Positions 2,608 through 21,454 are shown, counted from the stretch's first letter. The stretch: 64,000 nucleotides of DNA from Thermoplasmata archaeon (GCA_049966795.1 JBMFTY010000001.1:14444-78443); one strand, 5' to 3'. Numbers and translations: made by a program. Notes: generated by a model from the sequence alone, not told the origin.

Positions 2608-2643
2608 TGCATCAAAATGCATTCTCCATATAAGAATATAGGT

Positions 2644-2868: not shown

Positions 2869-4020
2869 ATGAAAAGACTAGGCCTGATCGTGAATCCAGT
2901 TGCAGGCATGGGAGGTCCCATCGGTCTCAAGGGTACTGATGGACCGGATGTGCTAGAAAGTGCGATGAAGATGGGTGCGAAGCAATCATCTCCTGAAAAG
3001 GCTCTCAGGGCACTCAACAGGCTGAGGGAAATTGCAGGGGAGATGGAGATCGTAACCTGTTCCAGTGACATGGGCCAAAAAATTTCGGCGGAAGCGGGGC
3101 TAAATTACAAGGTTTTATGCACAGTCCCCGACGTTACCTCGAGGTCTGACACAATTCGCTGTGCGAAAAATATGAGGGAGGCGGGTGTTGATCTCCTGCT
3201 GTTTGTTGGTGGGGACGGCACGGCCAGAGACATATGCGAGGCCGTGGGGGAGAGCGTCACGGTTCTGGGAGTCCCGGCGGGGGTTAAGATGTACTCATCC
3301 TGCTTCGCAATCACCCCAGAGGCGGCAGGTGATCTAGCCCGTCTGTACCTGAAATCCAGAGTTTCTGAGACGCATTTGGCGGAGGTGCTTGACGTGGATG
3401 AGGAGATGTTCAGGAAAGGAACTCTCTCCACCAGACTTTACTGTTACCTGAGGGTGCCTTACGAGAGATCCTACTTACAGGGTTCTAAGGTTCCGACGCG
3501 GGGGGAAGGGGAAGTTGCCCAGCAGGAGGCCATAGCAGAGCAGGTTGTGGACAGCCTCCAGGAAGGCCACTGCTACATAGTGGGTCCAGGCACAACGGCG
3601 AAATCAATAGTGAGGATGCTTGGAATTGAATCCAATGTGCTCGGAATTGATATGATATGCAAAGATGGAGGAAAAGTGAAGTGCGTGGGAAAGGACATGA
3701 ACGAGCAGGCAATACTGGATGCAATCTCTAAGCTGGGCAGGGAAAGGATTCATCTTATCATAACCCCTCTCGGGGGCCAGGGATTTATCCTTGGTCGTGG
3801 AAATCAGCAGTTGAGTCCAAGGGTGATGGAGAATATAAGAAGAGAAAACATCATGATCGTCGCAACGCCTGAGAAAATAAGAACTCTGTCGTCAAAACAC
3901 CTCCTCATAGATACTGGTTCATTGCAGCTGGACAGAAGCCTAGAAGGTTACTACAGGGTTATCACCGGCTACCGCATGTTTTTCCTGCTGAGGGCAAAGA
4001 GCAGGCCATACGATTCCTGA
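2869..4020 (+). CDS. ATP-NAD kinase-like protein (COG3199-type)
   Basis: 383 aa with N-terminus LGLIVNPVAGMGG and a GGDGT motif (FVGGDGTARD). Confidence 0.6.
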   Translation: MKRLGLIVNPVAGMGGPIGLKGTDGPDVLESAMKMGAKQSSPEKALRALNRLREIAGEMEIVTCSSDMGQKISAEAGLNYKVLCTVPDVTSRSDTIRCAKNMREAGVDLLLFVGGDGTARDICEAVGESVTVLGVPAGVKMYSSCFAITPEAAGDLARLYLKSRVSETHLAEVLDVDEEMFRKGTLSTRLYCYLRVPYERSYLQGSKVPTRGEGEVAQQEAIAEQVVDSLQEGHCYIVGPGTTAKSIVRMLGIESNVLGIDMICKDGGKVKCVGKDMNEQAILDAISKLGRERIHLIITPLGGQGFILGRGNQQLSPRVMENIRRENIMIVATPEKIRTLSSKHLLIDTGSLQLDRSLEGYYRVITGYRMFFLLRAKSRPYDS

Positions 4021-4196
4021 ATCCCCCTGGCGCGGGCGAAAAATCATTTTGGTTCACGTGCCATTGCGTTTTTGGGATGAATAGGCAGATTTGGCATCTG
4101 CATCCCTTGCACGTTACTTTCATTCCTGATGAGCCCCTGCCGAAAGCATCGGCGAGGAAGAACAATTATATGCCATCCTGATTACGTCATGGATAT

Positions 4197-6849: not shown

Positions 6850-7031
6850 CTCTCTAAGTCTGTGCTTTCAAAGAAAGCTAGGCAATTCTTTCCGAGCTGA
6901 AAGATAACATTAAGGCCAGGCACGGATAGCTGCGGCAGAACAGATGAATGAGGAAAAGCGGATCAAACCACTAGGCCAAAACACAAAACAAAAGCTGCAC
7001 GGAAATAAAATCGAGAGCTCAGAGTAATTTT

Positions 7032-7055
7032 GGAAACAAAAATTCGTTTGTTTCC
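7032..7055. terminator. Perfect 9-bp hairpin between convergent genes
   Basis: GGAAACAAA-aattcg-TTTGTTTCC lies between the Bax1 stop (6849) and the TusA-like stop (7201), with T-runs nearby. Confidence 0.35.
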
Positions 7056-7200
7056 TGTGTTAACTGAAGTTCCCTTGAACCGATATGGAAAGGAGGCATG
7101 AGGGTCGTTGGATTATGGAGGTCGCATCGGACCTTCTTCCTTTTGGTTAAAGATAATGAAGGGGAAGTCGTGTATCAATGGCTTCTGCGCCGTTCTACTC

Positions 7201-7428
7201 TCATCTCTTCTTTATTTTTATTTTGGCTACGATCACTCCATTGTCCTCTTTCATTTCCAGTATTTCATTTCCCGTCTTTGCAGCCCAGGCTTGAGTGTCC
7301 TTTCTCATTGCCTTATCCTTATCGGTGAACCAGAGCTCTATAACATCGCCCGTTTTGCAGTGCCTGTAAGCGTTTGAAAGATATGTTATCGATGCACAGG
7401 TTGCTACCCTACTATCCACCACCCTCAA
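7201..7428 (-). CDS. TusA/SirA-like small protein with a non-canonical active-site motif
   Basis: 75 aa with a TTG start. It has DSRVATCASI where TusA has DxRGxxCPxP: the Cys is kept and both Pro are lost. The overall size and alternating pattern look TusA-like. Confidence 0.45.
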   Translation of the reverse strand: MRVVDSRVATCASITYLSNAYRHCKTGDVIELWFTDKDKAMRKDTQAWAAKTGNEILEMKEDNGVIVAKIKIKKR

Positions 7429-7654
7429 CGTTTGCGCTTACATCACCTCCAGGGAGCCTTTGATTCCCTATTTATTATAATATTATTAGAGAAAAGGTGT
7501 ATCGCGTATGACTTAGTACCATACCTGTGAGGCACGAATGCATGCGTATACAAACAAAAAGGCTCCAATGATAATTAAACAGTAAACTATCATTCAATAT
7601 TCCTGTGGACTATTTGGTCATTGCCAATAAAATACCCTCACCTGTAAGTGGCAA

Positions 7655-8317
7655 TTGCTTAATCAACATGAAAAATCACGAATCACGGCAAGACCGGAAA
7701 ATAGGAAGCTTACGCGCGGACAGGTTGAGGTAACCGTGGAGGTTGAAAGGCAGAAATGTTTCATAGATGAAACTCTCTTCAGCAAGTGTTGTTCCATCGA
7801 ATGTCTCTCTCTTGGGCCGGATAGAACAATTCATAAGGTGGTCTGCAAGGAAGGCCAGGAGGAGTGCGTTAGAAAGCTTCTCGCGGGCAAAGACCTGAAA
7901 TTCAAAAGGGCCGGGAAAAATGTATTCTGGGTGGAGTCAGACAGTTGCGTTTCCTGCGCCTTTTTTGCAAGGTCTTTCTCAAATGTTATGGGGTCCATAC
8001 TTCAGGACAAGAACAAGCTTCAGTACAAGGTGCTGTTACCCTCAATCAGGGGGCTGAAGGACCTCAAGGAGGGAATGGAAAACGCAGGACTGAAGTACGA
8101 GATAGCAGAAATAAGGTCATACATGCATCAGGAGCTCACGGATAGGGAGCGTGAAGTGCTGCGGAAGGCACTCCAATATGGATATTTCAAGGAGTCCTCA
8201 AGAACTTCCCTCACGAGCCTGGCCGAAATCATCGGAATATCACCATCATCCCTCTCAGCCATACTGAGGAGGAGTCTCAGAAAGGTCGTAAATTTCTATT
8301 TCGATCACAAACCCTGA
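7655..8317 (+). CDS. HTH_10 (bacterio-opsin-activator type) transcription regulator with a Cys-rich N-terminal region
   Basis: The C-terminus LTDREREVLRKALQYGYF...SLTSLAEIIGISPSSLSAILRR is a typical HTH_10. Nine Cys lie in the first ~110 aa. The start is uncertain (TTG 7655; no in-frame ATG nearby). Confidence 0.6.
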   Translation: MLNQHEKSRITARPENRKLTRGQVEVTVEVERQKCFIDETLFSKCCSIECLSLGPDRTIHKVVCKEGQEECVRKLLAGKDLKFKRAGKNVFWVESDSCVSCAFFARSFSNVMGSILQDKNKLQYKVLLPSIRGLKDLKEGMENAGLKYEIAEIRSYMHQELTDREREVLRKALQYGYFKESSRTSLTSLAEIIGISPSSLSAILRRSLRKVVNFYFDHKP

Positions 8318-8324
8318 TTGCCGT

Positions 8325-8338
8325 CCCGGAGTTCCGGG
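8325..8338 (+). terminator. Short GC hairpin just after the regulator stop codon
   Basis: CCCGG-agtt-CCGGG begins 8 nt after the TGA at 8315-8317. Confidence 0.3.
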
Positions 8339-8664
8339 GATAACTGCGCAACATCCCAAAAAAAGGATCATTAATTGGAGGTGTCCCGTCTCCGAAAATA
8401 GGCGTTGCGAGCGCTTACCCGCGGGACAGATGAGTCTAGGCCGTCTGAAGGATTTCACGTTGGAACGCAACTCTTCACGTTAAAAGAATGGTAAATGCGG
8501 GGGGCTGGAGAGATCGCCTGACCTTGTGATCTGCGGGTGCGAAAGGAAAAAAGGGGAGCCTTTTGGCGAAGGTGGAGCAATCCGAGACGTAGCTCCTTTT
8601 CCCATCAGCGTTCACCGGGCCAGTACCCTTCAGGGAATCCCTTGAATAATGGCATCCATCTCCC

Positions 8665-8694
8665 CACATTTCCTTCGAATTTTTCGGAAATGTG
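8665..8694. promoter_or_regulatory. 9-bp perfect inverted repeat in the operon leader
   Basis: CACATTTCC-(12 nt)-GGAAATGTG. It could be an operator or an RNA stem. Confidence 0.35.
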
Positions 8695-8706
8695 CAATTT
8701 GAAAGG
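8687..8706 (+). promoter_or_regulatory. Repeated motif copy A (GAAATGTGCAATTTGAAAGG)
   Basis: Shares GAAAT-NN-GCAATTT-S-AA(A)GG with copy B at 8857-8875. Confidence 0.3.
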
Positions 8707-8856
8707 GACTCAGTCCCACTCAGGAAAAGGGTACCCCTAATTTCATCTCAAAACCAATACTTAGAAAGCTACGAGAATAGCTCCCTCATTTACAGCGGAA
8801 ATTTTGTGGTGATTGCTGAAAAAAATACCTTACAGGTAAGGTACGTCGCTTTTGTA

Positions 8857-8875
8857 GAAATACGCAATTTCAAGG
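8857..8875 (+). promoter_or_regulatory. Repeated motif copy B (GAAATACGCAATTTCAAGG)
   Basis: Ends 12 nt upstream of the ATG of the DsrE-like gene. It is similar to copy A, 170 bp upstream. Confidence 0.3.
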
Positions 8876-8886
8876 CGTGACCTACA

Positions 8887-9300
8887 ATGAGTAAGAAGAT
8901 GGCGATAACGGTATTCACAGGAGCGGTGGATAGGCTGACAGGTATGGCGGTACTTGTCGGAGGTGCTGCTGCTTCGGATATAGATGTTGATATATTCCTT
9001 CAGCTGTGGGGTGTCTATGCGATGAGGAAGGACGTGATTGAAAAGAACATGGAGTTCAGCGAGCATGATGATCTGAAGACTGAGGTGGTCGGGGGCCTAA
9101 CCAGGATAAAAGCGCCTTCCTGGATCGATATGCTAAGAGAGGCGAAGAAGGCGGGGAACGTGAAAATCCATGCCTGCTCCCTCGCACTGCAGATTTGGAA
9201 CAAATCAAAGGAAGACCTCGTCGATGTTGTGGACGATGTAATGGGGGCCGCTGAATTTCTCGATCTCTCTGCAAAGGCGAACATAACCTACTTCATATAG
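8887..9300 (+). CDS. DsrE/DsrF-like (DrsE_2 / COG2210-type) sulfurtransferase-like protein
   Basis: 137 aa. It has AITVFTGAVDRLTGMAVLVGGAAA...FLQLWG and a conserved Cys in KIHACSLAL, as in DsrE3-type proteins. Confidence 0.6.
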   Translation: MSKKMAITVFTGAVDRLTGMAVLVGGAAASDIDVDIFLQLWGVYAMRKDVIEKNMEFSEHDDLKTEVVGGLTRIKAPSWIDMLREAKKAGNVKIHACSLALQIWNKSKEDLVDVVDDVMGAAEFLDLSAKANITYFI

Positions 9301-9302
9301 AG

Positions 9303-9572
9303 GTGTTAAAGTTGGTGCTAAATGAAAAGGACCTGGCTAGTGTGAAGTCTGCCAAGCTGGTTGATGCCAGAGGGACAGCCTGTCCCGGTCCATTGCTAGC
9401 TGCGAAAAAGGCAATGAGCGAAGTTCCTCCGGGAGGGATACTGGAAGTCTGGTCCTCCGACCCTGGGACGAACAGGGACCTTCCGTTCTGGGCAAAGAAA
9501 ATGGGGCACGAGTATCTTGGAACTATAACGGAAGCGGGATACTGGAAGATATTCGTCAAGAAAGGAAAGTAA
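9303..9572 (+). CDS. tusA: TusA-family sulfur carrier
   Basis: Carries the canonical motif VDARGTACPGPLLAAKKA. GTG start 2 nt after the upstream stop. Confidence 0.85.
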   Translation: MLKLVLNEKDLASVKSAKLVDARGTACPGPLLAAKKAMSEVPPGGILEVWSSDPGTNRDLPFWAKKMGHEYLGTITEAGYWKIFVKKGK

Positions 9573-9574
9573 GC

Positions 9575-9988
9575 ATGAACGGAGAGCCAAGGATCCTGGT
9601 ATTCTCCACGAATCTGATCTCAGACCCGGGGATAGACCTGGCCGGCCTTCTCAAGATGCACTATCCCTCCACAGTACACATCATCAGCGTCCCCTGTTCC
9701 AGCATGGTCAAGCCGGAGTGGATCCTTCATGCGCTGGAGAAGGGGTATGACGGCGTGTTCATAGCCGCTGATGGAACTGACTGCCCCTGCATATCAGACT
9801 GTACGGAAAGAACATCAAGGAATGTGGGAAGGGCGCAGGAGATGATGAAGGAAAGGGGCATAGACCCCGCCAGGGTCAAGATGGCCGCTATTTGCTCTGT
9901 CTGCTCTGAGGCGTTTGTGAATCACGTGAAATATTTTAAGGAATCCCTCGTAAGCATAGCCAGCCAGATGGTAGGGGTGAAAGCATAG
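9575..9988 (+). CDS. MvhD/FlpD-like iron-sulfur protein
   Basis: 137 aa with RILVFSTN...ISVPCSSMV...GYDGVFIAADGTDCPC, typical of the methyl-viologen-reducing hydrogenase delta subunit family. Starts 2 nt after the tusA stop. Confidence 0.7.
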   Translation: MNGEPRILVFSTNLISDPGIDLAGLLKMHYPSTVHIISVPCSSMVKPEWILHALEKGYDGVFIAADGTDCPCISDCTERTSRNVGRAQEMMKERGIDPARVKMAAICSVCSEAFVNHVKYFKESLVSIASQMVGVKA

Positions 9989-10014
9989 GAAACAAGGAAG
10001 AATACGACACGCTT

Positions 10015-11292
10015 GTGATCGGTGCCGGTATATCAGGGATGGAGACGGCCCTCAATCTTGGGGACATGGGCTTCAGGGTGCTTCTAGTTGAGAAAACCCC
10101 AAGCATCGGCGGCACGATGATCCTCCTCAGCAAGGTGTTTCCAACCCTTGACTGCGCATCATGCATTTCCACTCCGAAGATGGCATCAGTCATGCATCAT
10201 CCGATGATAACAACCCTAACATACACGAACGTGGAAGAGGTGAAGAGAGAAGGAAACAGATTCTCCGTCAGGATTAAGAAGAATCCAAGGTACGTGAAGG
10301 AGGATGTGTGCACGGGCTGCGGCCAATGTGAGAGCAGCTGCCCCGTTGTTGTTCCAGACCAGTATGCATACGGCCTGGTAGGGAGAAAGGCTGCCTACAT
10401 TCCGTTTTCCACTGCCTCCCCCAGGGTCGCTCTCATAGACCTCAAAAACTGCGTTCTTTGCGGTATGTGCGAGAGAATATGTCCGGCGGATGCGATAGAC
10501 TTTACGCAGCAGCCTGTGGAAAGGGAAGTGAGGGTGAGGACCATAGTTATTGCAACGGGCTTCAACCTGTTTCCCGCGGAGAGGATGTCGAACTACGGTT
10601 ATGGAAAGTTCGAAAACGTCATAACTTCAATGCAGATGGAGAGGCTTCTTTCACCAACCAGGCCGTTCAACAATGTGTTGAGGCCATCGGACGGCAAGGT
10701 TCCCTCAAAGATCGCTTACGTACTATGCACGGGCTCAAGGGACAGAACGGTTGGGAACAGCATATGTTCGCAGGTATGCTGCATGTATTCTATCAAGCAG
10801 GCGCAGCTTCTCATGGGTGCGTTGCCCCTGGTCGAGGTGACGATCTTCTACATAGACATCAGGGCATTCGGCAAGGGCTATGAGGAGTTTTATCAGCAGT
10901 CGAAGGAGATGGGGATACGTTTTGTCAAGGGTAAGGTATCAAAAATTGACAAGAAGGAAGACGGCAACCTCGTCCTGAGATATGAGGACATAGGCGATTA
11001 CGGGAAGCTGAAGGAGGAGGAATTTGACATGGTTGTCTTGTCAGTTGGCCTACTCCCATCCTATGAGATCCTGTCGAAATTCAATGGTCTCAAGGTGGAG
11101 CAGGACGAGGCGCTTTTCATCAGGTCCCAGGATATCTTGAACGTCACGGAAACGAGCATTCCTGGGGTGTTCGTGACTGGAACGGCATTTGGTCCCAAGG
11201 ACATCCCAGATTCCGTCACTTCAGCAGGTGATGCGGCTGCTGGGGCAGCTGCGTTCATGAGGGAACAGGAGGTGGCTGCGAACGCCAAATGA
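10015..11292 (+). CDS. Short HdrA-like flavoprotein (QmoA-like) with an inserted 2x[4Fe-4S] ferredoxin motif
   Basis: Has GAGISG...LVEKTPSIGG, FPTLDCASCISTPKM, CTGCGQCESSCP and CVLCGMCERICP. The true start is probably upstream of GTG 10015 (see finding). Confidence 0.8.
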   Translation: MIGAGISGMETALNLGDMGFRVLLVEKTPSIGGTMILLSKVFPTLDCASCISTPKMASVMHHPMITTLTYTNVEEVKREGNRFSVRIKKNPRYVKEDVCTGCGQCESSCPVVVPDQYAYGLVGRKAAYIPFSTASPRVALIDLKNCVLCGMCERICPADAIDFTQQPVEREVRVRTIVIATGFNLFPAERMSNYGYGKFENVITSMQMERLLSPTRPFNNVLRPSDGKVPSKIAYVLCTGSRDRTVGNSICSQVCCMYSIKQAQLLMGALPLVEVTIFYIDIRAFGKGYEEFYQQSKEMGIRFVKGKVSKIDKKEDGNLVLRYEDIGDYGKLKEEEFDMVVLSVGLLPSYEILSKFNGLKVEQDEALFIRSQDILNVTETSIPGVFVTGTAFGPKDIPDSVTSAGDAAAGAAAFMREQEVAANAK

Positions 11293-11302
11293 AAAGATAG
11301 GG

Positions 11303-13237
11303 GTGTATATCTGCCATTGCGGAGGCAACATATCTGATTACGTTGACGTGAAGAAGGTAAAGGAGAAGCTTGAAGGGACGCCAGGTGTCGCGCTCATCAA
11401 GACCATGATGTTCACCTGTTCTGATTCCTCACAGCAGGAGATAATCTCGGATATAAAGGAAAAGGGGCTGGATGCCGTTGTTATTGCATCGTGCTCCCCA
11501 AAACTGCACCAGTTCACGTTCAGAAATGTTGCAAAGAGGGCGGGTCTAAATCAATATAAGTACGTGCAGGCAAACATCAGGGAACAGGTGTCCTGGGCGC
11601 ATTCAAATGACCCGAAAGGGGCAACGGAGAAAGCTATATCTGTGATAAGAGGCGCTATAAGCAGGGCTAGGGAGGCCGAAGCGCTGGAACCGATAGGTAT
11701 TCAGAGCAGCAGGTCTGTACTCATAATAGGAGGAGGTGTCAGCGGGCTCCGATCTGCCCTTGAATTTTCAAAAATAGGGGTGAACGTATACCTCATCGAG
11801 AAGTCCCCGTTTCTGGGAGGAAGGCTGATGCAGTGGGCACAGCTGTTTCCATCGGGGGAAAGTGGGAGAAATGTGGCGGGAAAATTGGTTGAGGATGTTA
11901 CGAGAAGGGAGAATATCACGGTGATGACAAACGCACAGCTGATTGAGAAAGCGGGGTGCGTAGGAAACTTCTCCGTCAAGATAAAGATATGGCCACGGGG
12001 AGTGGTGAAAAGAAGCGACAAGTTCCAGGAGGCAATCCAGAAATGTCCCGTGGAATACGAGGACGAGTATGAATTCGGAATCGGGAAGAGAAAGGCGATC
12101 TTCCTTCGGGAAGGCTCATATCCTGGACTGCCGGCAATAGATTTTGAAAAATGCACTCGATGCGGGGAGTGCGCGAAAATATGTGGAGATGCCGTAGACC
12201 TGCAGCAGAGGGAAGAGGTTATAGAGCTGAACGTTGGTGCGATCGTGGTCGCAACCGGTTTTGATCCCTATACTCCCAAATCCGGGGAATTCGGCTACGG
12301 GAAATTCAAGCGTGTCATAACACTTCCCATGCTTGAACGGTATCTGTCACATAGCACAGGGAAGGGGAGGTTGATTATAGATGGAAGGGAGATAAAGAGC
12401 GCAGCGTTCATCTACTGTGTGGGCAGCAGGCAGCACAGGGAGGAGGGGAAGGATGTGAACGAATACTGTTCAAGGTACTGCTGCACGTCCTCCATCTTCG
12501 TATCCCTCCACCTGAAGAAGGATTATCCGCATCTCAACATATACCATCTTTTCAGGGATATCAGAACCTACGGGAAGAACGAGCTTTATTACGAAGATGC
12601 GTCGCGGAGGGGGGTGGTCTTCGTGAAATACGATGAGGACGACCCGCCAACAGTCACCTCGGATGGGGATTCCCTCATGGTTTCCGTGACGGACCTCCTC
12701 ACTGACAGGGAGAGATTGGAGATTCCAGTGGATCTTGTCGTGCTCGTAACTGGTATGGTTCCCAGGGAAAATGGATCCCTCACGCAGATACTCAAGATCC
12801 CGACCGGGAGGGATAGGTTTTTCAACGAGGTGCATCCTAAGCTCAAGCCTGTGGAGACGACGATAGCAGGCATATACCTCGCGGGTACAAGTCAAGGGCC
12901 GAAGAACACTCAGGAATCAATTTCTTCAGCGCTATCTGCAGTTTCCAAGGCATCATCCCTCCTGATGAAGGGGAAAATCGAGCTAGAGCCAAACGTTGCT
13001 CATGTGAATGAAGAAATTTGCGAGTGGTGCGGGAAGTGTGCGGAAGCATGTCCATATGACGCAATCAGGAAGGTCCAAATCAACGGAAAGGAGGTTGCTA
13101 CAATCGAAGAGGGAATCTGCAAAGGATGTGGTGCCTGTGTTCCCTACTGCCCGGTCAATGCCATACAGGTTTTGGGCTACTCTGATAAGGAGATAATGGC
13201 TGAGATAGATGCTATGGCCGCCAAGGAGGTTGAGTAA
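11303..13237 (+). CDS. Full-length HdrA-like flavoprotein (QmoB-like, lacking a fused MvhD domain)
   Basis: The N-terminus YICHCGGNIS is the HdrA N-domain motif. It also has GGGVSGL FAD binding, CTRCGECAKIC, YCSRYCC, and a C-terminal CEWCGKCAEACP + CKGCGACVPYCP. Confidence 0.85.
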   Translation: MYICHCGGNISDYVDVKKVKEKLEGTPGVALIKTMMFTCSDSSQQEIISDIKEKGLDAVVIASCSPKLHQFTFRNVAKRAGLNQYKYVQANIREQVSWAHSNDPKGATEKAISVIRGAISRAREAEALEPIGIQSSRSVLIIGGGVSGLRSALEFSKIGVNVYLIEKSPFLGGRLMQWAQLFPSGESGRNVAGKLVEDVTRRENITVMTNAQLIEKAGCVGNFSVKIKIWPRGVVKRSDKFQEAIQKCPVEYEDEYEFGIGKRKAIFLREGSYPGLPAIDFEKCTRCGECAKICGDAVDLQQREEVIELNVGAIVVATGFDPYTPKSGEFGYGKFKRVITLPMLERYLSHSTGKGRLIIDGREIKSAAFIYCVGSRQHREEGKDVNEYCSRYCCTSSIFVSLHLKKDYPHLNIYHLFRDIRTYGKNELYYEDASRRGVVFVKYDEDDPPTVTSDGDSLMVSVTDLLTDRERLEIPVDLVVLVTGMVPRENGSLTQILKIPTGRDRFFNEVHPKLKPVETTIAGIYLAGTSQGPKNTQESISSALSAVSKASSLLMKGKIELEPNVAHVNEEICEWCGKCAEACPYDAIRKVQINGKEVATIEEGICKGCGACVPYCPVNAIQVLGYSDKEIMAEIDAMAAKEVE

Positions 13238-13239
13238 CG

Positions 13240-13518
13240 ATGCAAAAGAAAGTCCTAACAGTTGATTCGCTCAAGAACAAGATCGAGGTTCCCAAGGAAC
13301 TTCTGGAAAAGGTCCGTTCCGACAATCAGATAAAAGCATCTATACTAAAAGCCCTGAAGGATGGACCTAAGACCATACCTGAGATAGCTCAGGCTACAGG
13401 TCTTTCTTCCCCAACGGTAACGTGGTGGCTTATGACCCTCAGGAAGTACGGTTCCATAATCGAGGAGGAAGGTGGAATGGAGGATTATTACAGGTACAAA
13501 CTGAAAGGGGGAAAATGA
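13240..13518 (+). CDS. Small winged-helix (ArsR/MarR-like) protein embedded in the operon
   Basis: 92 aa with ILKALKDGPKTIPEIAQATGLSSPTVTWWLMTLRKYG. Starts 2 nt after the HdrA stop, and its stop abuts the next ATG (TGAATG). Confidence 0.5.
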   Translation: MQKKVLTVDSLKNKIEVPKELLEKVRSDNQIKASILKALKDGPKTIPEIAQATGLSSPTVTWWLMTLRKYGSIIEEEGGMEDYYRYKLKGGK

Positions 13519-14640
13519 ATGGTAACTGTCAAGCCTGATCTTCTGGATGAGATGAAGAAGCTGGGGGCGTTCGACGTATCTGCCTGCTACAGTTGCGGCA
13601 CTTGCACGGCAGTTTGTCCTCTGTCAACCAACGGTCACGAATTTCCAAGGAAGATGATAAGGTATGCGATGATAGGGGACGAGAATAAGCTTCTTGCCAG
13701 CACGGAGCCCTGGCTCTGCTATTACTGCGGGGAGTGCACAAGGACATGCCCTCGTGGCGCGGATCCTGCAGGATTCATGATGGCTGCAAGAAGGTATCTC
13801 ACAACAAGATATGATGTCACTGGCTTTTCCAGGAGGTTTTACAGGTCGAAAAGCTTGGAGATTCTTTCCGGAGTCCTCCTCTTTTTCCTGACGGTGTTTC
13901 TTGTCTACATGTTCCACGGTCCGGTGGTCACATCGTACGTGGATCTGGTATCCTTTGCCCCCTTGCGCATAGTGGACCTTGGAGATATTGCGGTGATGAT
14001 ACTCTTAGGTGGTCTCCTCCTCACAAACCTCTACAGGATGTTCAGGTTCACGGTTGCATCATCCCCAAACGGTAAGATTCGCATCTCCTCATACCTGAAG
14101 GAATTGATAAAGACAGTGCCGGTGCATTTTCTAACACAGAGGAGAACCCTTTCATGTGAGAAGGGAGACAGGGATTGGATAATGCACGTGCTTACAGTCT
14201 ATGGCTACGCCTCGTTCTTCGTTCTTGGTGTGTTCCTGCTTGATCTATGGCAAACAAATGTTATGTACCCAATATACAACCCTGTAAGGCTCATAAGCTA
14301 CATCGCCACGGTCATGCTGGGTTTAGGCGTTGGCTATGCCATCTACGGTCGCATAAAGAAGAGCTCAACGATGAGAGAGAAAAGTCACTCAACGGACTGG
14401 TACTTCCTAACGCTTCTGTTCCTAGTCGTTGTGACTGGAGTTGCGGTAACGGTCTTCAAATACACGAACCAGCCAATCGCCACCTATGTCTCGTATACGA
14501 TTCACCTGGGATTCATAGTCCCGCTACTCGTTCTGGAGGTTCCTTTCGCTAAATGGTCCCATCTGGCTTACAGGCCATTTGCAGTGTATTTCGCAAGGCT
14601 GCAGGATTTGCTGAAGGGGGCTGAGAAACCGTCCCCGTAG
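13519..14640 (+). CDS. QmoC-like fusion: HdrC-type 2x[4Fe-4S] domain plus NarI/HdrE-like membrane cytochrome b domain
   Basis: N-terminal CYSCGTCTAVCP and CYYCGECTRTCP motifs are followed by about 6 hydrophobic helices. Conserved His residues are present (MFHG, VPVHF, IMHVL, TIHLG, KWSHLAYRP). Confidence 0.75.
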   Translation: MVTVKPDLLDEMKKLGAFDVSACYSCGTCTAVCPLSTNGHEFPRKMIRYAMIGDENKLLASTEPWLCYYCGECTRTCPRGADPAGFMMAARRYLTTRYDVTGFSRRFYRSKSLEILSGVLLFFLTVFLVYMFHGPVVTSYVDLVSFAPLRIVDLGDIAVMILLGGLLLTNLYRMFRFTVASSPNGKIRISSYLKELIKTVPVHFLTQRRTLSCEKGDRDWIMHVLTVYGYASFFVLGVFLLDLWQTNVMYPIYNPVRLISYIATVMLGLGVGYAIYGRIKKSSTMREKSHSTDWYFLTLLFLVVVTGVAVTVFKYTNQPIATYVSYTIHLGFIVPLLVLEVPFAKWSHLAYRPFAVYFARLQDLLKGAEKPSP

Positions 14641-14781
14641 ATCATCATGATTTCGAAGGAAATCTGCAATGTCTCAGGTGCCAAAGTTCAGGGAACAACA
14701 GCAGTTAAAGAGCGCTGCGGCATCAGAGGCGATTAAGAGCTGGGTACCACAGTCTTACTCAGCCTCTTAAATTCCCGTGGC

Positions 14782-15153
14782 CTATTCGGAAGAGTACTTC
14801 GTCAACCTCTCCACGATGAGTTCCAGATTCACTTCTCCGGTCCTGAAGAAGGCCCCCACATTGCGCTTCTTTCCCGAAATAAGAATCATTGATACATCCT
14901 GGCTGCGGAATATCATCTCGTTCACGTGCTCAAATGGTATCCCGCAGTACATTGAATATATTGAAAAGATATTCGAAAGCAGAGAGAAGAGAGAGCCACT
15001 CAACCTTGCGGTGGAATCAGCCTGAACCGAGTTCAATTGTTCACTCTTGAAAGACAGGAGTTTTCCAGAATAATCGAATTCCCCGACTGCCAGCACACCC
15101 TTCATTTTGTAAATTTCCTCGATTTTCATAGTTACCACTTTCGTATGAATCAT
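14782..15153 (-). CDS. Roadblock/LC7-fold small protein (DUF2173-like)
   Basis: 123 aa. KGVLAVGEFDYSGKLLSFKSE resembles my recollection of DUF2173/roadblock proteins. The assignment is tentative. Confidence 0.4.
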   Translation of the reverse strand: MIHTKVVTMKIEEIYKMKGVLAVGEFDYSGKLLSFKSEQLNSVQADSTARLSGSLFSLLSNIFSIYSMYCGIPFEHVNEMIFRSQDVSMILISGKKRNVGAFFRTGEVNLELIVERLTKYSSE

Positions 15154-15236
15154 GAAAACAGCAGTTCAAAAATCTTGTCCCTAATGGCAATCAAACCGCG
15201 TCTGAGAAACTGAGAAAGTTTAACAAGGCGCGATAT

Positions 15237-15521
15237 CTAGTCTCCCAGTTCCTTCAATTTCTTATTGCTGAACAGATTTTCCTTCAATTCCTTATCAAGC
15301 TGCGGATCTTTCCTTCTGAGGTATTCAAGTATCATGGCGAAGTGTTCCTTCTCGTCATCTCTATTATGCATCATTATGTATTTCAACTCCTTGTCCTTTG
15401 TCACATCGGCACGTTCGTCATAGAACATTATTGCCTCAATCTCCTCAATAAGAGACTGTCTCGCTCTGCTGAGGTCCTTAACATCTTCGCTTATATTTTC
15501 GTCAGACTCATATCTTGGCAT
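15237..15521 (-). CDS. Encapsulated-ferritin (EncFtn) family protein, short form
   Basis: EEIEAIMFYDERADVTKDKELKYIMMHNRDDEKEHFAMILEYLRRKD closely parallels the EncFtn core (EELEAVDWYDQR...HNRDEEKEHAAM..EWLRR) with the Glu/Glu/His ferroxidase ligands. Confidence 0.7.
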   Translation of the reverse strand: MPRYESDENISEDVKDLSRARQSLIEEIEAIMFYDERADVTKDKELKYIMMHNRDDEKEHFAMILEYLRRKDPQLDKELKENLFSNKKLKELGD

Positions 15522-15904
15522 AGTTAATGATATCTGAATTCCGGTTTAAAGGTTGTCCCAGTCAAATTCAGCGATCCCTTTCCCAAAAGGGGAAAAATTA
15601 TGTCTAATTATAGATTGCAATAATGGCCGATGTTCATCAAGATGTTCTTCACTTGTTAATCTTCAGATCGTACCATCAAACTCTTTAAGATGCCATATAG
15701 TTCCAGTAATTTCCCTCGATTTTACGGTGTAGCTGCTTCTAGTTTTTGAACAATAGATGGAAATTATTTACCAGGAAGCCTATTTGTAACTATTCTTCGC
15801 CGGATACAAAGAAGAAACAAGGACCTACCTCGTTTTGAAGGAAGCGTTGTTATTCACACTGGGTTATAGAACGACGCTCCAGATTCTCGGATGACTTTGA
15901 TGGA

Positions 15905-15979
15905 TGGGCTTGTCCGGATTTGAACCGGAGTCTTCGACTCCCGAAGCCGAAAGGATGGACCAATCTACCCCACAAGCCC
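15905..15979 (-). tRNA. tRNA-Pro (anticodon CGG)
   Basis: Acceptor GGGCTTG/CAAGCCC, T-arm TCCGG-TTCAAAT-CCGGA, anticodon arm TCGGC-TTCGGGA-GTCGA. The D-arm/variable-loop spacing is slightly irregular in my hand fold. Confidence 0.7.
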
Positions 15980-16029
15980 CAACGTTCTGCATTTCAAAGC
16001 ATTTAAAAACATTTGCTTAATCCCTTCCC

Positions 16030-16728
16030 ATGGAAAAAGAAGTCATGAGCAACACGGATTCGATCATGTTCAACATTTCCGGAGAGATAGTCATGTCAAG
16101 CGATCCCGGGAAGACCATAAGAAAGTGGAGGGAGGAATTCAATATAACGCAAAAGGAACTTTCGGAGAAGATGCATGTGAACACATCCGTCATCAGCGAC
16201 TATGAGACGGGAAGAAGAAAATCTCCAGGCTCCCATTTCCTCAAGAGTCTCGTAAATGCGATGCTCGAAATTGATGATGAGAGGGGAAGCCCAGTCAGGC
16301 TAAAGTATTCGCTCGGTACGGACAAGGACGTGATAGTTGACATAAAGGAATTCTTCTACGATGTTGACATCGCGAAATTCACAAGGCTGATAAAGGGGGT
16401 CCAGGTGAGCAAAATCGATGTCAAGAGGAGCATAAGGGGCTACACCATACTTGATTCCCTGAACGCGATTCTAAAGCTAACGTCATTCGACTATTTCAAG
16501 GTATACGGCTGGACTACGGAGCGAGCACTGTTTTTCACGAACGTTGAATTTGGAAGGTCCCCAATGATCGCTGTCAGGGTTCACCCGATAAAGCCTGCTG
16601 TGGTAGTGTACATCCAGCCAAAGAGGGTTGACCCTCTTGCTATTAAGCTGGCGGAAATAGAGGGGATACCTCTGATTACCACTGACCTCTCCCCCTCGGA
16701 GATAAAAGAAAAGCTGAGGGAGGTCTAG
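16030..16728 (+). CDS. XRE-type HTH protein with a conserved archaeal C-terminal domain (COG1395-like)
   Basis: IRKWREEFNITQKELSEKMHVNTSVISDYETGRR is a classic Cro/C1 HTH. Confidence 0.6.
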   Translation: MEKEVMSNTDSIMFNISGEIVMSSDPGKTIRKWREEFNITQKELSEKMHVNTSVISDYETGRRKSPGSHFLKSLVNAMLEIDDERGSPVRLKYSLGTDKDVIVDIKEFFYDVDIAKFTRLIKGVQVSKIDVKRSIRGYTILDSLNAILKLTSFDYFKVYGWTTERALFFTNVEFGRSPMIAVRVHPIKPAVVVYIQPKRVDPLAIKLAEIEGIPLITTDLSPSEIKEKLREV

Positions 16729-17639
16729 GTCAGAAGCCTGTTCAGATACCAGTCCAACGTGAATGGTACCAGGTCAGAATAGGTCTGGCCAGTTCCTATG
16801 AACAGTATTGGCTTCTTCGTCTCGGCGAGAAGGGAGATGATGCTTCCCCCCTTCGCATCCGCATCTATCTTTGTAACTATGTACCCATCCACGCCCACAG
16901 CCTCGTCAAACAACTTGGCCTGATTAAGCGCGTCCGTTCCGGCAAGGGCGTCTATGGTGAGGATCGTGAAATCGGGAGAGGAAATCCTCTTTATCTTCTT
17001 CATCTCCTCAAGCAGATTCCTGTTCGTCTGCATCCTTCCCGCGGTATCTATCAGCACAACTGCCTTCTGGAATCTTGAGGCATGCTTCACCGCGTCAAAG
17101 GCCACCGCCGCAGGATCGCCGCCAGCCTGATGCTTGATGACCTTCACCCCAACCTTCTCTCCAAGGAGGGCAATCTGCTCTATCGCACCCGCCCTGAAGG
17201 TATCCGAGGCAGCTATGACCACGTAATCCCCGCGTGCTTTGAACATGTCTGCCAATTTCGCCACCGATGTGGTTTTTCCCGTACCGTTCATGCCGACGAA
17301 GAGGATCACGAAGGGGGACTTCCCTTCAGCCATTTCCATGATGTTGACCGGGGGAACATTTGCAATCTGCATTATTGTTTCCCTTACCGCCTCCCTCAGC
17401 ACGGCGTTCCTGTCCCCTCTGAGCTTCACGCTCCCTTCCCTTATCTTCGAGAGGAGGGTGCTGGATATCCTGTCCGCAACCGGAAGAACAACATCGGCCT
17501 GAAGGAGGGAAATCTTCAGGTTGGAGGAGATCTCTTCGGGCCTCTTCGTGGATGCAACCGCGGCGAACAGATCATCCGTTTCTACCTGTTGCTCATTTCT
17601 CTTGACCAAACCGAGCAATTCCTTCAGCTTCTCGAACAT
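16725..17639 (-). CDS. ftsY: Signal recognition particle receptor FtsY
   Basis: SRP GTPase motifs GMNGTGKTT, DTAGR and TKIDADAKGG. The start is placed at ATG 17639 (MFEKLKELLG), just after the prefoldin stop. Confidence 0.9.
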   Translation of the reverse strand: MFEKLKELLGLVKRNEQQVETDDLFAAVASTKRPEEISSNLKISLLQADVVLPVADRISSTLLSKIREGSVKLRGDRNAVLREAVRETIMQIANVPPVNIMEMAEGKSPFVILFVGMNGTGKTTSVAKLADMFKARGDYVVIAASDTFRAGAIEQIALLGEKVGVKVIKHQAGGDPAAVAFDAVKHASRFQKAVVLIDTAGRMQTNRNLLEEMKKIKRISSPDFTILTIDALAGTDALNQAKLFDEAVGVDGYIVTKIDADAKGGSIISLLAETKKPILFIGTGQTYSDLVPFTLDWYLNRLLT

Positions 17640-17643
17640 CTGC

Positions 17644-18048
17644 TCACTTCTTGTAGAGCGTGTTGATGTACTCTTCCAGCTGAGAATAACGCCTCTGGAG
17701 GTCGTTCTCAAGGTCGCTGTTCCTCTCTATCGCCCTCGTAACGTCATTCCTCCTTTCTTCGATGATCTTGAGAGCGTCTTCCACGGTAGCTTTCTTGTAA
17801 GCTCCAGACCCGAGGCTCACCAGAACTCTTTCCCTGTTCTTGATCTCAGCCTCCACGTACAGCCCTCTCCCTATGGGTATGAGAGAGTCCCCCTCAACCT
17901 TTCCGATGTTCCTGAGGAAATCGCTCGTGACTATGAGGTCCTGGAGCAGCTGGGAAAGCGACTGGTTCCTCTGCTCTATCTCCTCAATCTGCTCTCTGAT
18001 TACCTCCATGCTGTACGCAACCTCGTTGATTCTCGATTCCTGCGACAA
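17644..18048 (-). CDS. pfdA: Prefoldin alpha subunit
   Basis: 134 aa coiled-coil/beta-hairpin/coiled-coil layout with LIPIGRGLYVEAEI...VLVSLGSGAYKKATVEDA. Confidence 0.8.
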   Translation of the reverse strand: MSQESRINEVAYSMEVIREQIEEIEQRNQSLSQLLQDLIVTSDFLRNIGKVEGDSLIPIGRGLYVEAEIKNRERVLVSLGSGAYKKATVEDALKIIEERRNDVTRAIERNSDLENDLQRRYSQLEEYINTLYKK

Positions 18049-18049
18049 A

Positions 18050-19297
18050 TCAGTTCCCTCCGAATTTCTTCTTGGATGTGACCAGGGATTCTATACCCGG
18101 CATGGGTTCCCCTGCAAGGAAGCTTATCAGTGCTCCTCCACCCGTCGAAATGTGCTGTATCTCCTTTTCCGTGATGCCCATCCTCTCAAGAGCGGCGAGG
18201 GTGTGTCCACCTCCCGCGACCTTGTACCCCTTGGATCTCGCCACGGCAGCGAATATTTCCTCAGTCCCAGAGGCAAAATCCTTGAGTTCAAATACGCCCA
18301 TGGGACCGTTCAGTATGATTCCCTCTGAATCCCTAATCACCGAAATGTATTCAGCTATTGTATCAACACCTATGTCCATCGCCGGTATATCCTTCCTGAA
18401 GTCAGCCAGGGTGTAGTGCTTCGGTTTCCCATTCTCGTTGCCGATGAAATCCACCGGTGTCATCACCTTTTCCCCGTACTTGTCAAGTATCTCCCGGGCC
18501 CTGTTAACGGAGGTCTTGTAATCCCCTATCTCCTTTGCGAGCACCTCCTCATTCTTCTTGCCAAGATCAGCTCCTTTGGCCATAAGGAATATGTGGCCTA
18601 CAAGCCCACCTGTCACCACCCTATCCAGTCTGTCCTCTTTAAGCATCCTCCCTATTATCTTTATGGAATCGTCCGCCTTTGATCCTCCAAATATCCCGAC
18701 CCTGTTGCTCCCCTTGATCTCGTAGAATCTCTCAATCCCGGCAACCTCGGATTCCATCAGCTTCCCGGCAATGTTTGGCATAAGCCTGCTGAATCCAACA
18801 AGGGTCACGTTGCTTCTGTGTGCGGCGGCAAATGCATCGTTCACGAAGAAATCCGAATGAGCTGCGAGGTTCCTGACGATGTGCGTCTTCTCAATCACAT
18901 CCATCTTTTCCTCCGCAAGCACCACCTCCTCCGAATAGAACCTCGTGTTTTCCAGCATGAGAATATCACCTGGCTTTGCGGAATCTATCTCCTGAAGAAC
19001 GTTTTCCTCGAAAAGTCCGGGGATGAACCTGACCTTCCTCTTGGTAAGGTTGGAAAGGTGTGCGGAGTGGGTCTTGAGGCTCACGAAATCATCCTTTCCG
19101 GGCCTGCTCTGGTGAGCTAGGATGACAACCTTTGATTGCGAAAGCGCATCTATGGTTGCCAGATGCGCCCTGAACCTGGCATCATCCAGGATGTTTCCCG
19201 TCTTCGGATCAATGGGTGAATTTATGTCCAGCCTCAGAAGAACTGTCTTGCCTGTCAGGTTGAAGTCGTTTATCGTGAAGAAAGGCAGAGGGTTCAT
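18050..19297 (-). CDS. pgk: Phosphoglycerate kinase
   Basis: 415 aa with RLDINSPI, HQSRPG and a C-terminal STGGGA motif. Confidence 0.95.
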   Translation of the reverse strand: MNPLPFFTINDFNLTGKTVLLRLDINSPIDPKTGNILDDARFRAHLATIDALSQSKVVILAHQSRPGKDDFVSLKTHSAHLSNLTKRKVRFIPGLFEENVLQEIDSAKPGDILMLENTRFYSEEVVLAEEKMDVIEKTHIVRNLAAHSDFFVNDAFAAAHRSNVTLVGFSRLMPNIAGKLMESEVAGIERFYEIKGSNRVGIFGGSKADDSIKIIGRMLKEDRLDRVVTGGLVGHIFLMAKGADLGKKNEEVLAKEIGDYKTSVNRAREILDKYGEKVMTPVDFIGNENGKPKHYTLADFRKDIPAMDIGVDTIAEYISVIRDSEGIILNGPMGVFELKDFASGTEEIFAAVARSKGYKVAGGGHTLAALERMGITEKEIQHISTGGGALISFLAGEPMPGIESLVTSKKKFGGN

Positions 19298-19310
19298 GTT
19301 TCCTTATTTT

Positions 19311-20489
19311 TTAGTGGCTTAAATCAGTTTCTGACAGTCTTGGCTTTCCATCAACCAGTACAGTTCTTATGAGATCATCTCCGAATCTGTACCCAATGTT
19401 CCTGTAGCTTCCCCTAGTCACGATAATGTTGGCCCTTTTCCCCTCATGAATGCTTCCCGTTTCCGAGGATAGGGAGAGGGTGTAACTGGAGTTTATCGTT
19501 GCCATGTTCAGGAGATTCTCAAGCGTGAGGGGAGTGAACTGTCTTGCGATAGAAATGACGAAGGGGAGGGATGTGATGTAGGTGTTGGGGGACGAATCTG
19601 AACCAATGGCAACAGTGATCCCCCTTGCCTTCAACGCATTGAATATGTCCAGCTTTTTGCCAAGCAGCATCGCCGTATATGGGAGAAGCGTAACTGCAGT
19701 TCCAATTTCCCCTGTTTCCATCTCTCTCGTCTCAACCATGTGGTCAAAGGATGCGATCTTCAGTCCCTTGAGGCGGGAAACGCCCCCAAGGTTCTTCAGT
19801 TCGTTGAGATGAACCCTTCCAGGGATACCCAGGGAGTTGGAAAAGGCTATCGCCTGGTAGGCGAAGTCTGGCGTGAAAGCACCTTCATCCACAAAGACGT
19901 CCACATAATCTATCCTTCTCCTGAATTCTTCTATCATCTCCTTAAAATCTGAAAGGAACGCATTTTCGGATACGCCGCGAGGAGGAACGTGGGCAAGGAG
20001 CGTTTTCCTTATCGTTATTCCAAGTTCCTTCTCAAGCGCCTCCATCACGCGGATGCTCTTCTCCTCTGTCTCCAGATCCAAACCGTAACCGGTCTTGCAT
20101 TCAAGGACGGCTGTCCCATTCCTTATCACGCTGACCATCCTCTCCCTTGACTGGGCCAGCAGGTCTTCAAAGTCACACCGCTTCGTTGCAGCTACGGTGC
20201 TGTAAATCCCGCCCCCTGATTTGAGCACCCCTTCGTACCCCACCCTCTTCCTTAGGTCTATTTCATCCTCCCTGCTGCCGCAGAACACAATATGGGTGTG
20301 GGGGTCGGTGAACGCCGGTATTGCCCAATCCCCAGCTTCCTCTCCGTCCGAGCTTGGCCTTATCCTCCGGATCTTCCCCTCAGCAATTTCTATATCCTGA
20401 GCTAGACGTATCTCCAGGGTGTCAAGTGATTTTCCGGTTACTTTTTCAAGGTTGGGTGGGGTTGCAATGTTGACGTTCTTGATCAGCAT
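19311..20489 (-). CDS. hutI: Imidazolonepropionase-like amidohydrolase
   Basis: FTDPHTHIVFCGSREDE...GGGIYSTVAATK matches the HutI signature. No hutH or hutU gene lies nearby. Confidence 0.65.
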   Translation of the reverse strand: MLIKNVNIATPPNLEKVTGKSLDTLEIRLAQDIEIAEGKIRRIRPSSDGEEAGDWAIPAFTDPHTHIVFCGSREDEIDLRKRVGYEGVLKSGGGIYSTVAATKRCDFEDLLAQSRERMVSVIRNGTAVLECKTGYGLDLETEEKSIRVMEALEKELGITIRKTLLAHVPPRGVSENAFLSDFKEMIEEFRRRIDYVDVFVDEGAFTPDFAYQAIAFSNSLGIPGRVHLNELKNLGGVSRLKGLKIASFDHMVETREMETGEIGTAVTLLPYTAMLLGKKLDIFNALKARGITVAIGSDSSPNTYITSLPFVISIARQFTPLTLENLLNMATINSSYTLSLSSETGSIHEGKRANIIVTRGSYRNIGYRFGDDLIRTVLVDGKPRLSETDLSH

Positions 20490-21454
20490 TACTTCAGATA
20501 CAGGTCCCTGTAGCAGGAGTCGGCCGCAATGGCACCATCAGAGGCAGCAACAATTATCTGGGCAAAGGACCCGGCCACGTCACCGGCTGCATATACCCTT
20601 TCGACGTTCGTTCTCATGTTCCTGTCCACCTTGATGTAACCGCGCTCGTTTAGCTCGACCCCTATGGATTTCGCCAGTTCGGACTGAGGGGAGAGACCAA
20701 CGTATATGAATATCCCATCGAATTCCTCCTGGTATTCCTTTCCAGTTGCCCTGTCCTTGTACCTCACGCTCTTTGCCGATTTCTCGTCTCCCGTGATCTC
20801 CGTGACCTGGACGTTCTGCTTGTATTCTATTCCCATGGACTTTATCTGCTTCACGTACGCATCCTCGCACATGTACTTGGGCATGAACTCGAATATCTTG
20901 ACCTCCGATACTATATTCTTGAGGGATATAGCTGCGATGGCCCCCGAATTTCCCCCACCTATGACAAGGACCTTCCTGTTCTTGAAAAGCCAGCCGTCGC
21001 AGGTGCTGCAGTACGAGACCCCTTTTCCGAAGTACTTGCTCTCACCAGGGATTCCGAGATGCTTGTGTTTTGTACCCGTGGCAAACAGTATCGCCCTTGA
21101 TGTGAAGCTTCCCTTCTCCGTTTCAATCTCGAACCTCTCCCCCTTTTTTATTGATAGAACCCTCGTGTTTTCAAGTATCTTGGTGTAATTCCTCGCGTGT
21201 TCCACGAATGATTTCGCCAGTTCAGTACCCGGGATAGCTGTGAACCCAAGGTAGTTCTCGACCAGGGGTGCTTCAAGCGTGAGCCCTCCGGCAACAGATC
21301 CGTCTATCACAATGTTTGATAGGCCTGCCCTGGAGGCGTATATGGCTGCGGAAAGTCCCGCAGCCCCTGCCCCTATTATCAGGAGATCAAAGTCTCGTTT
21401 CTCAACCTCCTGCTTCTCCTCTCCGATGACAAGCTGCACTGGATCGCCCCTCAC
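20489..21454 (-). CDS. trxB: Thioredoxin reductase (NAD(P)H-dependent, low-Mr type)
   Basis: Has DLLIIGAGAAG, redox-active CSTCDG, GGGNSG and a C-terminal AAGDV. The GTG start overlaps the thermosome stop; the exact start is uncertain. Confidence 0.85.
   Translation of the reverse strand: MRGDPVQLVIGEEKQEVEKRDFDLLIIGAGAAGLSAAIYASRAGLSNIVIDGSVAGGLTLEAPLVENYLGFTAIPGTELAKSFVEHARNYTKILENTRVLSIKKGERFEIETEKGSFTSRAILFATGTKHKHLGIPGESKYFGKGVSYCSTCDGWLFKNRKVLVIGGGNSGAIAAISLKNIVSEVKIFEFMPKYMCEDAYVKQIKSMGIEYKQNVQVTEITGDEKSAKSVRYKDRATGKEYQEEFDGIFIYVGLSPQSELAKSIGVELNERGYIKVDRNMRTNVERVYAAGDVAGSFAQIIVAASDGAIAADSCYRDLYLK

Follow-up and report, generated by a model that had tools for sequence, protein, structure and literature searches.

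A tail-less EncFtn-like protein of a Thermoplasmata archaeon is an ordinary member of a described shell-less class, and its roadblock-type neighbor an accident of gene order

A gene for a protein of the encapsulated-ferritin (EncFtn) type that has neither an encapsulin shell gene beside it nor a targeting tail, and that is followed on the same strand by a gene for a roadblock-like protein, raises the question of whether the protein works with a different partner, serves as cargo of a shell encoded elsewhere, or functions without a shell. Such an arrangement occurs in a 64,000-nt stretch of DNA from a Thermoplasmata archaeon (GCA_049966795.1, JBMFTY010000001.1:14444-78443), which was analyzed over its full length and is called the window here. 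The two genes are placed as follows, in window coordinates:

15237..15521, minus strand: EncFtn-like gene, 94 aa, of the short tail-less class (s-FLP / Non-EncFtn), assigned by PF22277, a TIGR04535 match below cut-off, the 3k6c match, and an AF2 model
14782..15129 (ORF to 15153), minus strand: DUF2173 gene of roadblock/LC7 fold, 115 aa from the probable start Met9, assigned by PF09941, ortholog length, and AF2 with Foldseek

The 94-aa ORF is EncFtn-like in both family and fold and has an intact set of ferroxidase ligands. Its match to PF22277 (EncFtn-like) scored 111 bits, where 27 is the cut-off, with an E-value of 2.5e-32 and an alignment spanning profile positions 3-84 of 85, and its best match among solved structures was 3k6c (95 aa; E 1e-25), followed at ∼1e-17 by 5da5 and 5n5f, the encapsulated ferritins of R. 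rubrum and Haliangium ochraceum, respectively. The AF2 model (pLDDT 84) has the two long antiparallel helices and short C-terminal helix expected of the EncFtn-like superfamily, which correspond to one half of a ferritin four-helix bundle, at residues 12-40, 44-71, and 73-84, and Foldseek aligned it to 3k6c with a TM of 0.83-0.86 and 50-54% identity, and to 5da5 with a TM of 0.8-0.9. When the protein is aligned to R. rubrum EncFtn, a five-residue offset brings Glu27, Glu57, and His60 onto the ferroxidase ligands Glu32, Glu62, and His65, Tyr34 onto Tyr39, and Glu26 and Glu29 onto the entry-site residues Glu31 and Glu34. All six residues are invariant in an alignment of 17 homologs, and both ligand motifs (Glu and Glu-x-x-His) are present in 109 of 120 homologs. 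The preliminary description of this DNA, which had called the ORF an EncFtn relative that keeps the Glu/Glu/His ligands, was thus right on both counts. Because of its identity to 3k6c, a crystal structure from 2009 that has ten chains in its entry and is said to form decamers in a 2024 review (PMC11202242), we infer that the 94-aa protein would form a metal-dependent decamer with ferroxidase activity.

The chain terminates in ...LFSNKKLKELGD, which places its end 8-10 residues past the last helix (...KKLKELGD), with no flexible linker of 10-40 residues. A targeting peptide (L/F-x-V/I-x-x-L/I, e.g., SLGIGSLK) was sought at this end and was absent. The absence of a tail had been correctly described: the match to TIGR04535, the encapsulin-associated NCBIfam profile, covers positions 4-90 of 114 and at 98 bits falls below the cut-off of 125. 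The C-terminal tripeptide is itself strongly conserved, as LGD was found in 119 of 120 close homologs; of the best 80 of 265 species loci, 55 have LGD and 15 have LWD.

The statement that no shell-sized ORF lies within the 64 kb was inaccurate as worded, since many ORFs of the window are shell-sized, but none of them is encapsulin-like. A Pfam scan of all 32 window ORFs of 200-410 aa found no match to Linocin_M18/encapsulin (PF04454), and nearly all of these ORFs received ordinary housekeeping assignments. With the T. maritima encapsulin (identical to 3dkt_A) as query, phmmer returned nothing from window ORFs of 50 aa or longer, although matches up to E 10 were admitted, and tblastn against the 64-kb window gave a best E-value of only 2.1. 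The same phmmer query was run against ORFs of at least 50 aa in 94 fetched loci, comprising 80 EncFtn homolog loci (±10 kb) and 14 further loci, and again nothing was found at E≤10; a shell gene within ±10 kb of an EncFtn homolog was thus detected in 0 of the 80 loci.

A shell-less, tail-less copy had been presented as anomalous, implying a different partner or role, but it is not unusual. In 2016, He et al. (PMC5012862) named as 'Non-EncFtn' a tail-less class that has no encapsulin sequence or targeting peptide, and the 2024 review (PMC11202242) uses 's-FLP' for shorter ferritin-like proteins without a long disordered C-terminus or an apparent targeting peptide. With an EncFtn core of ∼95 aa, no targeting peptide, and no associated encapsulin gene in the 64 kb, the 94-aa protein has the defining features of this class. 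A profile search of 1.84 billion cluster representatives yielded 990 EncFtn-like clusters; among the best 150 of these, 76 representatives have at most 8 residues past the core and 71 have tails of at least 15 residues, so that about half of the nearest representatives are without a tail and tail-less forms are therefore common. Many of the short-ended representatives finish ...DYLFTDKPIAHE, and many of the long-tailed ones show LGIGSLK-type peptides. With the putative s-FLP consensus LFTD(E/N)KPIAHE of the review, which is not a formal criterion, the window protein has L-F-S/T-x-K in common, but it ends in ...LKELGD. A search of the EncFtn literature from 2021 onward for a functional study of a tail-less member found none; a Pasteurella paper deals with a putative shell protein and not with an EncFtn.

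Among characterized relatives, the prototype of the class, NE0167 of Nitrosomonas europaea (3K6C), is the most similar. Like the window protein it has ∼95 aa, the same Glu/Glu/His center, no targeting peptide, and no known shell. The NE0167 type ends in ...LFTD(E/N)KPIAHE, whereas the archaeal clade to which the window protein belongs ends in ...LFSxKxxxxLGD and forms a very tight cluster of its own, confined to acidophilic archaea. The cargo proteins of family 1 encapsulins (R. rubrum Rru_A0973, H. ochraceum, and T. maritima Flp) belong to the same Pfam family, with 38-46% core identity and the same ferroxidase ligands and fold, but they carry a linker of 10-40 residues with an LGIGSL-type peptide and are encoded next to an HK97-fold shell gene; the 94-aa protein lacks linker and peptide, scores below the TIGR04535 cut-off, and has no shell gene adjacent. 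The Flp-fusion encapsulins (Pyrococcus furiosus PF1192, Sulfolobus, and Vulcanisaeta) also contain an archaeal EncFtn-type domain, and 2e0z was matched at E 0.002. In contrast to these fusions, the window protein stands alone, and its similarity to the short forms of bacteria greatly exceeds that to the fusion domain.

Relatives of the window's EncFtn were found in at least 265 species genomes in a scan of one genome per species, and the best 80 of the 265, which share 60-95% identity with the window protein, belong to Thermoplasmata, Micrarchaeota, Marsarchaeota, Nitrososphaerota, Thermocladium, and Parvarchaeota. The nearest species-level genome in the collection has a 95%-identical copy, close homologs are exactly 94 aa long in 105 of 120 cases, and those of Thermoplasma volcanium, Picrophilus, Ferroplasma, Acidiplasma, and many metagenome-assembled genomes (MAGs) are annotated as 'ferritin' in the source. 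Only one representative was retrieved at E≤1e-30 from a 50%-identity library, and the whole archaeal clade is therefore a single 50%-identity cluster. Members of the clade occur almost universally among acidophiles of the Thermoplasmatales type and their DPANN partners, with extremely high conservation. Identity across phyla is 61-76%, as high as within Thermoplasmata, which suggests strong constraint, transfer between cohabiting acidophiles, or both; to judge from isolate labels, many of the MAGs with EncFtn homologs appear to come from acidic hot-spring or mine-drainage samples. A possible link of the clade to orthogroup OG1052 of an acidophile oxidative-stress paper, described there as 'small Rbr domain without di-iron motifs', was considered and dropped; the members listed were Marsarchaeota and Metallosphaera accessions.

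These data bear on the possibility that the protein is encapsulin cargo after all, with its shell encoded elsewhere and the short C-terminus, ...K-x-L-G-D, acting as a minimal noncanonical docking motif, which we consider quite improbable. The conservation of the C-terminus is in keeping with such a motif (LGD in nearly all close homologs, and LGD or LWD in 70 of the 80 species loci), as is the L-G-I/L-G core contained in canonical targeting peptides. The review (PMC11202242) calls the encapsulation status of s-FLPs unclear and allows that they could in theory be encapsulated via a short tail, and one marine Thermoplasmata MAG has been reported with an encapsulin, which also counts for this alternative. 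However, classical EncFtn genes adjoin their shell gene, whereas none was detected in the 64-kb window or within ±10 kb at the 80 loci, and the tail of the 94-aa protein lacks the flexible linker. Members of the family also occur in Micrarchaeota, some of them on contigs 0.77 and 0.93 Mb long, and Micrarchaeota are DPANN archaea with genomes of only ∼1 Mb. A weaker point is that the entries listed from a census of 6,133 encapsulin systems, in the part of that census which they represent, include no Thermoplasma, Picrophilus, Ferroplasma, Acidiplasma, or Micrarchaeota.

The second gene was aptly called roadblock-like. The 123-aa ORF matched PF09941 (DUF2173) at E 1.5e-9 with 38.6 bits, above the cut-off of 26.1, and its AF2 model (pLDDT 77), in keeping with an alpha-beta-alpha roadblock fold, was matched by Foldseek to LAMTOR/Ragulator, MglB, and archaeal Roadblock proteins with a probability of 1.00 and a TM of 0.6-0.7. 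Translation probably begins at Met9 (position 15129) because the orthologs are 115 aa long. The importance attached to the pairing of the two genes, on the other hand, did not survive a survey of their co-occurrence. An HMM built narrowly from DUF2173 orthologs had no match in any of the 80 EncFtn loci, and DUF2173 was absent from the 25 most frequent neighbor families listed per side for these loci. The 95%-identical EncFtn ortholog (loci L007/L008) is flanked by DUF973 and by a gene of the acetyl-CoA synthetase (ADP-forming) type, the 87%-identical one (L004-L006) by a tRNA synthetase gene and pyruvate kinase, and neither has a DUF2173 neighbor. Conversely, the DUF2173 ortholog at 72% identity adjoins acetyl-CoA synthetase and catalase-peroxidase, that at 68% is in L013/L014, and no EncFtn was found within 8 kb of DUF2173 orthologs in loci L009-L014.

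Comparison of the window with L013 delimits the region in which the two gene orders differ, and the features concerned are these:

15905..15979, minus strand: tRNA-Pro(CGG), the L013 synteny boundary upstream of the EncFtn slot (ARAGORN, Rfam)
15187..15902, no strand assigned: variable slot, from tRNA-Pro to the conserved DUF2173 upstream region (blastn against L013, local alignment, L013 gene table)
15130..15236, minus strand: spacer of 107 nt from the EncFtn stop to the DUF2173 start, with T-runs TTTTT and TTTT (read from the sequence)
15545..15550, minus strand: TATA-like TTTAAA, 23 nt upstream of the EncFtn ATG, putative archaeal promoter (read from the sequence)

By blastn, window positions 15903-21001, containing genes for TrxR, an amidohydrolase, PGK, prefoldin, and FtsY and an HTH gene, align to L013 positions 2-5107, and the alignment ends exactly at tRNA-Pro(CGG), whose L013 counterpart is at 5030-5107. 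DUF2173 and a DUF790-XPB-NAD kinase-HAD-RadB-FEN1 block align as well. The slot in between holds the EncFtn gene alone in the window and an MFS transporter gene in L013. The ∼57 nt upstream of DUF2173 (from ∼15186), including a T-rich element, are conserved with L013 (score 66 against ∼18 for shuffled sequence); DUF2173 therefore keeps its own upstream region whatever adjoins it. The TTTAAA element would serve EncFtn as an archaeal promoter of its own, from which the mRNA would have a short leader or none, and since the spacer also contains T-runs, the two genes probably form two separate transcription units.

That EncFtn and DUF2173 constitute a two-gene module, in which the roadblock protein replaces the shell as partner, scaffold, or regulator, would fit their common strand and their spacing (107 nt, or 83 nt from the EncFtn stop to the first ATG of the DUF2173 ORF). 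We give this idea almost no credence, because each gene has close orthologs without the other, no DUF2173 match occurs at any of the 80 EncFtn loci, L013 keeps the DUF2173 slot and its upstream 57 nt with an MFS transporter adjacent, and the spacer T-runs and TATA-like element point to separate transcripts. DUF2173 is an independent gene whose adjacency is an accident of gene order, and it is not part of an EncFtn system. The preliminary description had also put the EncFtn gene directly downstream of a Qmo-like operon on the opposite strand; a Qmo/Hdr-like operon is indeed present, but the gene that it converges on is DUF2173 rather than EncFtn. Two further observations were considered and not used. 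An 18-nt imperfect direct repeat around EncFtn (15109-15126 and 15706-15723), a candidate insertion scar or att site beside tRNA-Pro, was attributed to chance because it does not extend and its alignment score of 26 is within the shuffled range (maximum 28). The low GC content of the EncFtn gene (40.7%; mean of genes 50.3%, sd 2.5) is a weak argument for recent transfer because GC3 lies only ∼2 sd below the mean and Lys, Glu, and Asp are abundant in the protein.

To see what EncFtn genes of this clade do adjoin, the nearest ORF on each side at the best 80 of the 265 loci was scanned against Pfam. The neighbors are heterogeneous and mostly lineage-specific housekeeping genes. Triosephosphate isomerase (TIM) is encoded immediately downstream of EncFtn in 12 loci of Nitrososphaerota, PCNA is encoded upstream of it in 5 loci of Micrarchaeota, and 7 loci have genes of the purine nucleoside phosphorylase type. 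Oxidative stress is the one functional theme that recurs, represented by an immediate neighbor in about one fifth of loci. A 1-Cys peroxiredoxin gene lies directly upstream in nine loci, from Picrophilus (L002/L003), Acidiplasma (L082), Ferroplasma (L054), and five MAGs (L018, L038, L041, L043, and L051); the clean gaps are 0-6 nt, the ORF calls overlap in three, and EncFtn appears to be translationally coupled to the peroxiredoxin in these loci. Hemerythrin is encoded 54-124 nt upstream in five Thermoplasma-type loci (L001, L027, L031, L032, and L053), Fe/Mn superoxide dismutase and a DsbH-like thioredoxin each adjoin EncFtn in three loci, and catalase-peroxidase (KatG) does so in one. Several MAGs have two EncFtn copies, only one of which is linked to peroxiredoxin (L041/L042, L051/L040, L038/L059, L054/L048, and L043/L078). 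In the window, the nearest peroxiredoxin gene is 30 kb from the EncFtn gene.

Neighbors of this kind could also be accommodated by another di-iron role, whether as a rubrerythrin-like peroxidase, in O2 or NO binding, or as an iron donor for Fe-S assembly. The apparent coupling to peroxiredoxin and the adjacency of hemerythrin are in line with such a role, as are weak rubrerythrin and COQ7 profile matches, FeS_assembly_P neighbors of EncFtn in two loci, and the window's own wealth of Fe-S genes (SufBCD, Hdr/Qmo-like). Against this, the protein has the ligands and the fold of an EncFtn ferroxidase center, no rubredoxin-like domain, and no identifiable electron-donor partner. On balance we think such a role unlikely, though less so than encapsulation.

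Our preferred reading, which we hold with somewhat better than even confidence, is that the protein is a free-standing, shell-less, decameric ferroxidase that limits Fenton chemistry, is transcribed alone, and is unrelated in function to DUF2173. By analogy with the solved relatives, it would most likely form a ring of ten subunits (five dimers), in which two subunits would jointly build each di-iron ferroxidase center from Glu27, Glu57, and His60. Transcribed on its own from the variable slot beside tRNA-Pro, it would probably oxidize cytoplasmic Fe(II) with O2 or H2O2, without an encapsulin shell, and would thereby lower Fenton chemistry in an iron-rich, acidic habitat. It would not serve as an iron store but act together with peroxiredoxin, hemerythrin, and superoxide dismutase. 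Several observations count against this model: by itself, EncFtn stores no iron (He et al. 2016, PMC5012862; a second source agrees), most of the neighboring genes are housekeeping genes, with oxidative-stress genes as immediate neighbors in only about one fifth of loci, and the peroxiredoxin gene of the window is distant from the EncFtn gene. The model also leaves unexplained the invariant C-terminal Leu-Gly-Asp, which hints at a conserved contact.

The role so proposed, removal of Fe(II) and peroxide against Fenton chemistry, is that of Dps and Dps-like proteins, members of the ferritin superfamily with peroxide-dependent Fe(II) oxidation. The two differ in architecture: Dps is a four-helix bundle that assembles into a 12-mer cage with a storage cavity, whereas the 94-aa protein, which falls outside the Dps family, is a two-helix hairpin that, by analogy with its relatives, would form an open ring without a cavity. 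We speculate that a mildly acidic cytoplasm might make a storage cavity less needed. A comparative-genomics paper on acidophilic archaea reports that neither Dps nor a Dps-like protein is widespread among acidophilic Euryarchaeota and proposes that another protein replaces it. A broader proposal, which we advance tentatively and rate well short of even, is that the clade could be the main cytoplasmic iron detoxifier, a shell-independent open-ring ferroxidase, of acidophilic archaea that lack Dps and ferritin cages; that it may have spread by horizontal transfer among phyla that have acidic, iron-rich habitats in common (61-95% identity across those sampled); and that its terminal Leu-Gly/Trp-Asp may dock a non-HK97 partner or an Fe(III) acceptor.

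The window gene is thus an ordinary member of a described class, and what made the locus striking, the pair of genes, is an accident of gene order, so that this locus in itself carries little weight. The fate of the Fe(III) made by a shell-less EncFtn is a matter of the whole s-FLP class and not of this locus. Taken across the clade, the conservation of the protein, its linkage to peroxiredoxin and hemerythrin, the invariant LGD, and the reported lack of Dps lead to a testable hypothesis of how acidophilic archaea may cope with very high Fe(II) loads.

The 94-aa EncFtn-like protein ends in Leu-Gly-Asp, encoded by positions 15237-15245, and these are also the final three residues in 119 of 120 close homologues. 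Among the 80 species loci compared, the best of at least 265 genomes with a relative, 70 have LGD or LWD at the C-terminus; bacterial short forms, in contrast, end in KPIAHE. Across the wider family, N-terminal extensions of 13-186 residues with no C-terminal tail were found in 34 of the best 150 cluster representatives (of 990 EncFtn-like clusters; e.g., P0128-P0143 and similar), and these extensions may stem from wrongly called start codons or represent signal peptides or domain fusions.

Comparison with L013, the syntenic locus of a relative, revealed two departures near the EncFtn gene. The first is a block of ∼8 kb (6850-14780) with no counterpart in L013, which appears to be an insertion with DUF790 (Bax1-like) on one side and DUF2173 on the other. 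It is a Qmo/Hdr-like module for sulfur or electron transfer, and its contents are as follows.

7655-8317, HTH_10 regulator
8887-9300, DsrE-like protein
9575-9988, MvhD/FlpD-like protein
10015-11292 and 11303-13237, two HdrA-like flavo-FeS proteins
13240-13518, small winged-helix protein
13519-14640, FeS plus membrane subunit

The second departure lies at tRNA-Pro(CGG) (15905-15979, minus strand), exactly where synteny with L013 stops. Because gene content in the adjoining slot differs by genome, with EncFtn in the window and an MFS transporter in L013, the slot suggests a tRNA-flanked hot spot of gene replacement; an att-like repeat was sought there and none was convincing. At another point of the same comparison, the HAD-like hydrolase ORF at 1990-2661 is 223 aa in the window versus 205 aa for its L013 orthologue, and its real start is probably further downstream than called. 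The 5S rRNA gene (2643-2765, minus strand) shares 19 nt with the start of this ORF.

The window carries other iron and redox genes, none of which the EncFtn gene adjoins:

34302-38886, minus strand, Suf-type region for Fe-S assembly (the genes confirmed, at 35536-38886, are SufD-like and SufC-like)
45339-45899, AhpC/TSA peroxiredoxin, a separate gene
46252-48916, plus strand, FecCD/Peripla_BP_2/ABC-type transporter, iron-siderophore or cobalamin

A QueE-like radical-SAM ORF (39629-40675, plus strand) is seemingly split by an insertion of ∼150 aa, which sits between GCNLRC and CDTKYS and has His-Asn as its last residues. This insertion may be a mini-intein; the ORF gave a weak Pfam Intein_splicing match (E 1.8e-4, below the cut-off).

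Several Thermoplasmata and Ferroplasma MAGs carry the 94-aa gene in two copies (locus pairs L041/L042, L051/L040, L038/L059, L054/L048 and L043/L078), with a 1-Cys peroxiredoxin in translational coupling to one copy and the other copy located elsewhere. The genome from which the window derives may also possess a second copy.
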